Below are positions 533-2,295 of a DNA stretch of 64,000 bases, piece by piece. Made by a program: the position numbers and the translations under genes. The notes beneath the pieces were generated by a model. It saw only the letters and a program-made list of their open reading frames with translations, had not been told where the DNA came from and made no database searches. Location: positions 935 through 64,934 of the forward strand of contig CAYVEW010000003.1 of the NCBI GenBank assembly GCA_964450375.1, in the 5' to 3' direction. Numbering within the stretch: the first letter of the stretch is position 1; the number at the start of each line of letters is the position of its first letter. Source of the DNA: an uncultured Bacteroidales bacterium (GTDB taxonomy: Bacteria; Bacteroidota; Bacteroidia; Bacteroidales; UBA12077).

Positions 533-556
533 ATCATAAAAAGAAATCATATTAAA

Positions 557-585
557 TGCTCCGTAAAAATGCGGAGCATTTTTTA
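557..585 (+). terminator. Rho-independent terminator after the T9SS cargo gene
   Basis: Perfect 7-bp stem TGCTCCG/CGGAGCA (557-563 / 572-578), 8-nt loop, then a T7 run (579-585). Confidence 0.6.
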
Positions 586-617: not shown

Positions 618-649
618 TTTGTTGACTCCGCTTGAGATAATTATATTTG
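618..649 (+). promoter_or_regulatory. Bacteroidota-type promoter for the purD transcript
   Basis: TTTG (618-621), 20-nt spacer, TATATTTG (642-649). This is an exact match to the -33 TTTG / -7 TAnnTTTG consensus and predicts a TSS near 655 and a ~370-nt leader. Confidence 0.5.
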
Positions 650-671
650 TTTCAAAATAAATCATAATAAA

Positions 672-1000
672 ATGAAACCTTCATGATTAAGTTAAATCAC
701 ACACGAACATGATTGTATGAGCAAGTATTGAGATGTGAGTATCAAGTGCAGAAACTAAAATTATGAAGGTTCACGAGCGGGATGTGTTTGGGGTTTGTGG
801 GAGCGAGCCTGCCTTGCCGGCAGGCAGGTAACAAAAAAACATCCCTTGCAGGAAAGAAAGGTAAATAGCAATAAATTAACAAATAAGAAAAATATAAACA
901 GATGAAACATCCATGATAAGCAGCTTAAAACAAACGAACATGATTATAGCAATAAATACGCTTAATTCTGCACGTGATAGAGCTTTGGATGTTCCATCTG
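672..1000 (+). ncRNA. Candidate structured 5' leader of purD: two paralogous long-range helices flanking a GC-rich hairpin
   Basis: Module 1 pairs 676-688 with 759-771 (13 bp, one G-U). Module 2 pairs 899-912 with 987-1000 (14 bp, one A-C mismatch). The 5' halves are about 85% identical (ATGAAACNTNCATGAT..AAG...ACGAACATGATTRTA). The central domain is GGGATGT/ACATCCC (779-785 / 839-845) enclosing hairpin 808-828. No known riboswitch core recognised. Confidence 0.35.
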
Positions 1001-1026
1001 ATAATTGAAAATTAAATTATAAACAG

Positions 1027-2295
1027 ATGAATCTACTTCTTTTAGGATCTGGTGGCCGCGAACATGCTTTGGCATGGAAAATAAATCAGAGTGAAAAGTT
1101 AAACCAGCTATTTATTGCACCCGGAAATGCAGGAACACAAAGCCTGGGTAAAAATATTAACTTAAACATTACTAATTTTCAGGAAGTAAAGGAATTTGTG
1201 CTCAATCAGAAAGTTGATTTGGTGGTAGTAGGGCCTGAGCAGCCTTTGGTAGATGGCATTGCTGATTATTTTCTTGCCGATGAGCAGTTAAAAGAAATCC
1301 CTTTAATCGGTCCGGTAAAAACCGGAGCTATTTTAGAGGGGAGTAAAGATTTTGCCAAAGAGTTTATGGTAAAAAATAATATTCCTACTGCACGATATCA
1401 GTCTTTTCAGAAAAATACTTTAGATAAAGGTAAAAAGTTTCTTGAAACCTTAAAGGCGCCCTATGTATTAAAAGCCGACGGACTTGCAGCCGGGAAAGGA
1501 GTGTTAATACTTAATGATTTACAAGAAGCGAAAGATTCTTTAGAAGAGATGCTAAATGGCCAGTTTGGTGATGCAAGTGCTACCGTCGTGATCGAAGAGT
1601 TTTTAAAAGGAATTGAGCTTTCTGTATTTGTGCTAACCGATGGAAAAACATACAAAATACTGCCCGAAGCAAAAGATTACAAGCGAATTGGCGAAGGCGA
1701 CACCGGATTAAATACTGGTGGGATGGGTGCTATTTCTCCAGTACCATTTGCAGGTAAGGATTTTATGGAAAAAATAGAATCTCGAATTATTAAGCCCACA
1801 ATTGAAGGACTAATCAATGAAAAAATTAAGTATAATGGATTTATATTTCTTGGTTTAATCAATGTTGAAGGTGATCCTTATGTAATAGAATATAATGTAC
1901 GAATGGGCGACCCGGAAACAGAAGTGGTTATCCCACGGATAAAATCTGATCTGCTTGATTTATTTTTACATACTGCTAAGGGCACATTAGATCAGGCAAA
2001 TTTTGAAATAGATAGCAGATTCTGCACCACTGTAATGCTGGTTTCTGACGGTTATCCCGGCAATTACGAAAAAGGAAAAGAGATTAAGAATTTACACGAA
2101 GTAAAAGATTCATTGTTATTCCATGCTGGAACTACATCTGACAGCGGGGTAATAAAAACAAACGGTGGGCGTGTTATTGCAGTTTCTTCTTTCGGAGATT
2201 CAATGAAAGATGCATTAAAGTGCAGCTATGAAAATGCGGCAAAAATCCGGTTCGAAGGAAAATATTACCGAAAAGACATTGGTTTTGATTTATAA
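1027..2295 (+). CDS. purD: Phosphoribosylamine--glycine ligase
   Basis: 422 aa. N-terminal LLLGSGGREHALAWK, ATP-grasp core and full-length colinearity with PurD. Confidence 0.97.
   Translation: MNLLLLGSGGREHALAWKINQSEKLNQLFIAPGNAGTQSLGKNINLNITNFQEVKEFVLNQKVDLVVVGPEQPLVDGIADYFLADEQLKEIPLIGPVKTGAILEGSKDFAKEFMVKNNIPTARYQSFQKNTLDKGKKFLETLKAPYVLKADGLAAGKGVLILNDLQEAKDSLEEMLNGQFGDASATVVIEEFLKGIELSVFVLTDGKTYKILPEAKDYKRIGEGDTGLNTGGMGAISPVPFAGKDFMEKIESRIIKPTIEGLINEKIKYNGFIFLGLINVEGDPYVIEYNVRMGDPETEVVIPRIKSDLLDLFLHTAKGTLDQANFEIDSRFCTTVMLVSDGYPGNYEKGKEIKNLHEVKDSLLFHAGTTSDSGVIKTNGGRVIAVSSFGDSMKDALKCSYENAAKIRFEGKYYRKDIGFDL

Follow-up and report, generated by a model that had tools for sequence, protein, structure and literature searches.

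Among the described systems closest to the element reported here, the insertion sequences of the IS200/IS605 group (with IS608 as their paradigm) and their gene-less derivatives, the PATEs, have no terminal inverted repeats, occur as small non-autonomous copies, insert in one orientation beside a fixed target of 4-5 nucleotides (nt), and carry imperfect hairpins at or near their ends that are active on one strand. The attC sites of integrons are single-strand hairpins recognised by their shape, with a conserved AAC/GTT where the stem begins, a mismatched or extrahelical position, and distal stem and loop parts that vary, and the secondary sites of integrons (GWTMW) accept insertions at a pentanucleotide, with the core found on both sides. 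Small gene-less repeats such as the Correia elements of Neisseria (NEMIS/CREE) and the ERIC/IRU repeats of enterobacteria lie mostly in transcribed regions next to genes, where they are co-transcribed and form stable mRNA hairpins able to alter expression, and Rickettsia palindromic elements (RPEs) and IStrons insert in or next to genes and leave the gene product functional. Here we show how these systems compare with the region in front of purD (phosphoribosylamine-glycine ligase) in a stretch of 64,000 nt from an uncultured Bacteroidales bacterium (contig CAYVEW010000003.1, positions 935 to 64,934; this whole stretch is called the window, and all window features given below lie on its plus strand). 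On comparative sequence evidence, we consider it highly probable that the purD leader consists of two start-codon-docking, gene-less and orientation-specific mobile repeats arranged head to tail, with a REP-like palindrome nested in one of them.

Extra DNA in front of purD

An open reading frame (ORF) of the type IX secretion system (T9SS) type ends at position 532 in the ORF list, and the non-coding DNA between it and the purD start amounts to 494 nt, as against a gap of 107-133 nt between the upstream ORF and the purD ATG in about 15 relatives of the same genus. Orthologues of purD were found in 37 of 41 relatives (58-74% identity), and the gap in the relatives holds, in this order, a terminator, a conserved promoter block (AATTTGTTGAC...GATAATTATCTTTG), an A-rich leader of 25-30 nt and the start ATGAAT. 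The promoter block, which stands 25-30 nt from the purD ATG in the same-genus relatives, appears orthologous to the predicted native purD promoter of the window (AATTTGTTGAC ... GATAATTATATTTG, 618..649), where the preliminary description had already placed a promoter and where a Bacteroidota-type -7 box is present (TATATTTG, 642-649), and the purD ATG of the relatives aligns with position 672. It follows that about 355 nt, at 677-1031, are extra and were inserted. The gene itself (1027..2295, 422 amino acids) is intact and, as the host gene, lies outside the inserted DNA.

As judged from the predicted promoter, purD is probably preceded by a leader of ~370 nt, which had been proposed to be a regulatory leader of this gene built from two related modules. 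Every sequence feature then reported is present at, or within a few bases of, its reported position, and the kinship of the modules is borne out by two direct repeats (659-687 with 889-917, 76%; 699-717 with 930-948, 89%). It is the tie to purD that fails. We built covariance models for a long form (R1) and a short form (R2) of the modules: R1 matches module 1 at 672-858 (139.5 bits, E=1.3e-27), R2 matches module 2 at 902-1031 (92.5 bits, E=2.6e-14), and these are the only R1 or R2 copies in the whole window. Upstream of purD in the relatives neither model has a match (0/29, E<=0.01), and the modules turn out to be copies of a dispersed repeat that stands before many unrelated genes. The preliminary description had itself said that a lack of conservation before purD and membership in a dispersed repeat would speak against its proposal, and both were found. 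The leader is not a purD-specific feature, and a purD regulatory leader is not what the modules mean; the leader is insertion DNA.

Module 1 is a long-form element of 230 nt (672..901), recognised by its R1 match, by the copies in its own genome and by covariation. It opens with the first of three ATGAA pentanucleotides (672..676), which the alignment with the purD upstream regions of the relatives identifies as the ancestral position of the purD start codon and which now opens a decoy frame of four codons, MKPS* (ATGAAACCTTCATGA, 672-686). The head helix P1 (676-685 with 762-771, within an inverted repeat of 13 nt, 676-688 with 759-771, 92%) encloses the loop motif ACACACGAACATGATTGTA (699-717) and is followed by helix P2 (772-777 with 794-799), by a body with GGGAGCGAG (799-807), TAAC-A7 (from 829) and GGAAAG (851-856), and by an A-rich tail that ends at 901 in ...TATAAACAG. 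Nested in the body is the GC palindrome CCTGCCTTGCCGGCAGGCAGG (808..828), present as first reported, and around it an inverted-repeat search and folding recover the helix GGGATGT/ACATCCC (779-785 with 839-845, span 779..845; inverted repeat 779-789 with 835-845, 11 nt, 91%). That helix is real in the window and is not family-wide, being limited to a few close copies (the window, a copy on contig C42 of the same genome and copies of the type at locus L011; we label contigs C, genomes of relatives G and analysed loci L).

Module 2 is a short-form element of 125 nt (902..1026), recognised by its R2 match, its fold and covariation. The second ATGAA (902-906) opens the decoy frame MKHP* (ATGAAACATCCATGA, 902-916), and the head helix (904-913 with 986-995, with a conserved A·C mismatch at 905·994) encloses the loop motif ACAAACGAACATGATTATA (930-948) and is extended in the fold through the tail of module 1 (899-903 with 996-1000), all within an inverted repeat of 20 nt (894-913 with 986-1005, 85%). 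A guide-like CATCTG follows (995-1000), and the A-rich tail ends at 1026, again in ...TATAAACAG. The terminal CAGATG plus AA (1024..1031) contains the third ATGAA and with it the present purD start codon (1027-1029), which was rebuilt where module 2 ends on its 3' side; the CAGATG can alternatively pair with the CATCTG at 995-1000. The insertions have put ~355 nt, two decoy upstream ORFs (uORFs) and two stable hairpins between the native promoter and the purD ATG, and the whole leader folds better than shuffled sequences (z = -3.64; 0/100 shuffles as good), as do module 1 (z = -3.16), module 2 (z = -4.12) and, less strongly, the centre (z = -2.21).

The difference between CCTTC/GAAGG in the first module and CATCC/GGATG in the second, which had been noticed as compensatory, can be read directly in the window sequence, and it arises because the modules belong to two different subfamilies, or stem variants, of the repeat. 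The two mini-ORFs of four codons are likewise present, and they consist of a retained old start codon and an arm of the hairpin; their peptides are not conserved, and some copies of the repeat start with CTG or TTG and have mini-ORFs of other lengths, so that a leader-peptide mechanism, once offered as an alternative, is not supported. Just as no core of a purine, ZTP, PRPP, THF or glycine riboswitch had been recognised by eye, a cmscan search of the window from 400 to 1300 against 4227 Rfam families (E<=10) gave chance matches only, on a hairpin that resembles an intrinsic terminator of the T9SS-type gene (554..581, a 12-bp stem and then a T run, outside the element), and there were no Rfam matches at E<=0.1 in 12 other loci that bear copies.

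At the purD gene of one relative (G016, locus L046) we observed a different insert of ~150 nt right at the start codon, which begins ACAG ATGAAACATAAATGC with a matching arm GCATGAATGTTCC; it is head-like by eye, is recognised by neither R1 nor R2 and was not counted as a copy.

A dispersed repeat at start codons

The hosts of the family are uncultured environmental Bacteroidales. Long forms occur in 28 of the 37 genomes of the genus (1-24 copies each) and short forms in 27 of the 37 (up to 20 copies), one genome (G022) holding more than 40 copies; beyond the genus the distribution in Bacteroidia is patchy, with R1 matches in 10 of 201 genomes of the order and R2 matches in 3 of 300 other genomes of a phylum sample, other orders included, and in collections of plasmids and phages the family has no match. 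In the assembly to which the window belongs (523 contigs, 4.04 Mb), long forms lie on C42 (85% identity to module 1) and at the end of C45, the latter probably continuing in C239, and short forms on C4, C12, C19, C39, C50 and C55. The same assembly holds a strain variant of the purD locus (C313, 95% identical). It also holds a tail-only piece of 44 nt (C134:6117-6160, minus strand), 100% identical to window 864-907, which takes up all of the DNA from the stop codon of one gene to the ATGAAA with which the following gene starts and is either a 5'-truncated copy or a deletion product.

The copies share one architecture, namely [A/C/T]TGAAAC and a 5' arm, a loop of 30-90 nt with ACACACGAnnATGATTAT, a 3' arm followed by GTTC, a body, an A-rich tail ending in ...(T)ATAAACAG, and ATGAA. 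Three body types were distinguished: the long body, CACGAGCGG...TTGTGGGAGCGAG-TAAC-A7...GGAAAG; a 'GCCGG' type; and the short body, which is CATCTGAC plus the tail and nothing else. The build is modular, as one 56-nt head in G022 is joined to two different bodies.

The evidence for insertion at ATGAA comes from the edges of the copies. The copies point the same way as the downstream gene. Of the 38 short copies, 30 have their end precisely on the ATG of an ORF with 60 amino acids or more, and about 30 of 45 long copies have the end of their R1 match 40-47 nt before such an ATG, the junction reading ...ACAG|ATGAA. In more than 70 copies, in one orientation, the junctions are ATGAA|AC... and ...ACAG ATGAA|N. 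In five filled/empty pairs (L010, L091, L081, L035 and L086, each against its orthologue in the genome of the window) the flanks are homologous up to a single ATGAA. A recent burst in G022 has left 13 full copies of 93 nt, 84-98% identical to their consensus, whose similarity runs from ATGAAAC to ...ACAGATGAA and whose flanks are unrelated. Near-identical copies, the mark of a recent burst, also occur in G021, G044, G014 and G057, whereas G004 and G051 lack copies altogether. Tandem arrays (the window, L024, L105 and G022:C35) are the outcome expected if the element inserts again into an ATGAA that it has regenerated. In a few old copies (SUI1, aroC) the site is CTGAA or TTGAA and lies upstream of the start, and the core target is therefore (N)TGAA.

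Surviving copies sit overwhelmingly on Met-Lys or Met-Asn start codons, and the genes that follow are unrelated to one another: purD, gcvT, aroC, hisC, SUI1, a PspC-like gene, peptidases, a flavodoxin and many proteins with signal peptides. The genome of the window contains 16,469 ATGAA sites, of which ~8% are gene starts (~38% of crudely called gene starts are ATGAA), and the excess of copies at start codons is far above this background of ~8%. Selection against insertions within ORFs explains part of the excess, and a wider target or a benefit may account for the rest.

The GC palindrome in module 1 is a separate case. It is absent from the same site in the 95%-identical C313 and in the C42 copy, optional at the same position in half of the long-form family seeds, and found elsewhere as 100%-identical 22-mers, for example in 13 copies in a genome of another family (G033). 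The palindrome is an independent REP-like mini-repeat, unrelated to the main element, dispersed and polymorphic; no GTAG or CGTC tag is evident in it, and RAYT-like genes exist in the genus. Its sites in the genome of the window include C39:4889 and C151:126, and several contigs of the assembly break at the palindrome. A further nested mini-repeat of ~31 nt (ATTCGCAnnGCTCATGAGAnCGCTTCGCTnA) was seen in either orientation inside three other copies of the element (L022, L036 and L015).

One of these copies, L022 (G020:C43, 1383-1640), and L092 (G011:C26), reverse strand, present an unusual arrangement, in which the element stands at an internal ATGAA (Met14) of a UDP-GlcNAc 2-epimerase gene (wecB) and the 14 N-terminal codons (MKIISVVGARPNFM) are found both before and after it. 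The differences between the codon copies and between the species are all synonymous (7 to 8 per comparison), and in G020 the downstream gene is cut off after 85 amino acids. One-ended joining of the element with an adjacent gene is one possibility, and selection on the upstream fragment is another.

Several other identities for the repeat were considered and rejected. A small protein on either strand does not fit, as the reading frames differ between copies because the 21-nt palindrome and the length of the poly-A run differ; an internal promoter was discarded, the TAnnTTTG box being absent from the element consensus; and a hammerhead-like core (CUGAYAA...GAAAC) was rejected by its topology and by the absence of a covariance-model match. 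Neither end of the element, ATGAAACC... or ...TATAAACAG(ATGAA), is repeated in inverted form at the other, and the head helix has its 3' arm in the interior, so that a classical MITE, or miniature inverted-repeat transposable element, derived from a DDE transposase is rejected for want of terminal inverted repeats.

Folding, movement and rival explanations

The long-range helices first seen in the window are real, not only as inverted repeats of the leader but also by covariation in alignments of 49 long-form and 38 short-form copies, in which the head helix covaries far more than in shuffle controls. In the long form, 97.9% of the cells of P1 are paired, 8 of its 10 pairs have double changes and 0/500 shuffles reach the observed score; in the short form the corresponding figures are 85.7% paired and double changes in 7 of 11 pairs. 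Pairs of G·U outnumber those of A·C by 10:1 in P1 and by 59:6 in P2, and therefore it is the sense strand that folds, either as RNA or as single-stranded DNA (ssDNA). The short form has a second helix, for which we found no earlier description and in which CAT[C/G]TG, directly behind the head, forms pairs with CA[G/C]ATG at the terminus, the downstream start codon included; 94.7% of its cells are paired, and at its variable position 21 copies have C-G and 10 have G-C. This right-end helix (CATNTG/CANATG) is confined to the short forms, the long form having none. These hexamers can, in addition, lengthen the head helix across the tail-to-head junction (in the window, 899-913 with 986-1000), and the extended helix puts the ATGAA core in a continuous stem of ~17 bp beside the conserved A·C mismatch. 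The short-form segment GTTCCATCTG is complementary to the junction of tail, ATGAA and head, as it would occur in a circular or tandem intermediate.

Taken together, the comparisons show that the element inserts precisely and in one orientation at 5'-(A)TGAA, with ATGAA rebuilt behind the A-rich tail and the old ATG left upstream as a short decoy frame. The unstructured tail and its ATGAA act as the new translation start, and the gene therefore stays intact. For its movement we propose a route through a folded single strand. The sense strand is the one that folds, since G·U is far commoner than A·C; the basal stem of the hairpin holds the ATGAA core beside the conserved A·C mismatch; and in short forms a segment complementary to the junction is present. 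An enzyme acting in trans might recognise the head hairpin and cut and join at ATGAA; candidates would be an HUH enzyme of the Y1 type (IS200/IS605) or a tyrosine recombinase like the integron integrases that act on attC, and the precedents are the 'peel and paste' mechanism of IS200/IS605, in which an internal guide pairs with the cleavage site, and the action of integron integrase on attC hairpins, with its pentanucleotide secondary sites.

A more specific reading, which we advance tentatively and hold to be somewhat short of an even chance, is that the repeats represent a new class of start-codon-homing mobile DNA, in which the flank of the hairpin (GTTCCAT(CTG)) pairs with the ATGAA core to choose the target. 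The intermediate in which such pairing occurs would be single-stranded and folded, and probably circular, and the enzyme would fall outside the classical IS200/IS605 TnpA set. The element would be 'translationally transparent', in that it carries an initiation region independent of Shine-Dalgarno pairing together with an AUG, and as a by-product it would have equipped dozens of unrelated genes with a decoy uORF and with a helix able to hide the real start codon, in effect a portable translational regulator.

Several observations weigh against mobile repeats as the explanation of the leader. Their mobility is deduced from comparative genomics, and the two strain variants of the purD locus do not differ in the presence of the element, only the nested palindrome differing between them. 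The 5-nt target alone does not account for the excess of copies at start codons over other intergenic ATGAA sites, and the ATGAA on both sides of every intact copy fits a target duplication of 5 bp and an ATGAA borne by the element alike, the two being indistinguishable because the target is constant. Neither a mobilising enzyme nor an autonomous, gene-carrying relative was found in the genome of the window or at the Y1 and RAYT loci of the genus, and a stringent arm search of that genome gave no autonomous copy with an ORF in the head loop. Y1 transposases (PF01797) occur in 35 of the 37 genus genomes and their counts do not track the number of copies: G009, with 10 TnpA, lacks long copies, whereas more than 40 copies occur in G022, from which classical TnpA is absent. 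Element-like ends are absent from 12 TnpA loci, from 8 RAYT-like loci and from the flanks of the TnpA genes in the genome of the window. Finally, in two sets of genes the orthologous copies are 92-99% identical as against 85-89% at synonymous third positions, and the second helix sequesters the start codon; conservation of this degree and a helix at the start codon mean that a host function at the RNA level may coexist with mobility or replace it.

Two further kinds of gene were noted during the enzyme search. A protein of 1228 amino acids in G022 (L301, G022:C150, 4043-7729), with a Y1_Tnp-like (IS200 transposase) domain at residues 598-704, was rejected as the mobilising enzyme, being a restriction-modification enzyme of the MmeI/Eco57I type; large ORFs similar to it occur in G016, G014, G023 and G005. 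Genes for proteins of 180-205 amino acids that are distantly Y1-like and RAYT-like (MSxxYKxxDQ...YFxTFxxxxWIDVFTR; L276-L283 in G008, G022, G044, G010 and G015) are single-copy, present in most genomes of the genus and not flanked by the element.

The rival that survives best takes up the last of the objections above and holds that the elements serve the host as regulatory RNA modules, or have come to do so, making up a portable leader for translational control whose mobility is only its means of spread. In the mRNA, CAUCUG would have two possible partners: the decoy AUG, in which case the head hairpin is lengthened and the real AUG stays free, or the terminal CAGAUG, in which case the real start is hidden. 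Translation of the decoy uORF or a factor acting in trans would tune every gene that bears the element, purD included. That the strand which folds is that of the mRNA, G·U being far commoner than A·C, that a covarying helix takes in the downstream start codon, that the spacing to the ATG is constant, that the element is conserved above synonymous sites in two orthologous sets and that the SUI1 copy is kept in at least 4 species would all be expected of such modules. We nevertheless consider the rival rather unlikely, on account of the lack of any functional relation among the downstream genes (purD, gcvT, aroC, hisC, SUI1, peptidases and many secreted proteins), the differences among species in the presence of copies at orthologous sites, the decay of the old SUI1 copy at about the neutral rate, the long form without a partner for CATCTG, and copies with no gene following them at C42 and L018; moreover, an ssDNA intermediate of transposition predicts the same covariation.

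A second rival, according to which the hairpins are attC-like sites of an integron-like system and the element bounds mobile gene cassettes rather than being itself the mobile unit, we judge very improbable. The base of the head stem does share with attC its AAC/GTT core and a conserved mismatch (ATGAAAC/GTTCCAT), much as in the R boxes, but the full consensus RYYYAAC/GTTRRRY is not matched. Orientation-specific insertion at a pentanucleotide recalls integron secondary sites, and the wecB arrangement suggests that joining of the head end can take an adjacent gene with it; however, the flanking genes are syntenic housekeeping genes whose orthologues stand in an identical context where the element is lacking, neither cassette arrays nor a neighbouring integrase are present, and tandem elements without a gene between them occur in the window and at L105. 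Least tenable of all, with next to no probability left to it, is a cis-regulatory leader specific to purD, riboswitch-like or acting through leader peptides, whose paralogous helices sense a signal of the purine pathway: a long and strongly structured region between a good promoter and purD, with two mini-ORFs, invites it, but the modules are missing upstream of purD in 29 relatives, stand as dispersed repeats before unrelated genes and match no Rfam family here or in 12 other copies, and their mini-ORF peptides are not conserved.

Relation to known systems

To judge from Rfam, from plasmid and phage collections and from full-text literature searches, none of which yielded anything similar, an element docking on start codons and rebuilding them has apparently not been described before. 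The stem-loops of IS605 retained beside lipoprotein genes of Borrelia are a distant analogue only (Delihas 2009, PMC2775950). The locus carries a caution for the discovery of RNA motifs, since paralogous helices with perfect compensatory changes in a long leader can mimic a riboswitch; in front of purD they are due to a mobile repeat of which two subfamily members came to rest on one start codon. The existence of the element would also explain many long structured 5' leaders in environmental Bacteroidales, would provide a natural experiment on Shine-Dalgarno-independent initiation in the phylum, and would point to hairpin-guided insertion machinery with a 5-nt target.

Set beside the systems with which we began, the nested palindrome at 808-828, and it alone, resembles the RAYT-mobilised REP/REPIN sequences in being a short GC-rich sequence that is dispersed, has identical copies in distant genomes and is polymorphic among strains, and it differs from them in that neither a GTAG/CGTC tag nor a flanking RAYT gene was seen. 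The main element departs from integron attC sites in having no cassette ORF, no array and no intI nearby, its copies being scattered before housekeeping genes, and in its boundary, which is ATGAA|AC and not G|TT. Correia and ERIC/IRU repeats, in contrast to it, have terminal inverted repeats, lie in either orientation and neither target nor rebuild start codons, and Correia elements insert at TA with duplication.

With IS200/IS605 and the PATEs the element shares the lack of terminal inverted repeats, orientation-specific insertion beside a fixed short target, and small non-autonomous copies. The hairpin at its left end is strongly supported, one at the right end is seen in short forms only, and it may also have an internal guide that pairs with the cleavage site, here GTTCCAT(CTG) with (CAG)ATGAAAC. 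It differs from PATEs in that no cognate Y1 transposase was found and TnpA numbers are unrelated to its copies, and from IS200/IS605 in its head helix, which encloses a loop of 30-90 nt instead of forming a compact hairpin of 20 nt, in the long form without a right-end hairpin, and in its target, ATGAA at start codons, for which it supplies a replacement translation start. RPEs and IStrons leave a functional product by other routes, the former by lying in frame within ORFs and being translated and the latter by splicing themselves out of the mRNA, whereas the element in front of purD does so by bringing a new initiation region and a start codon of its own.

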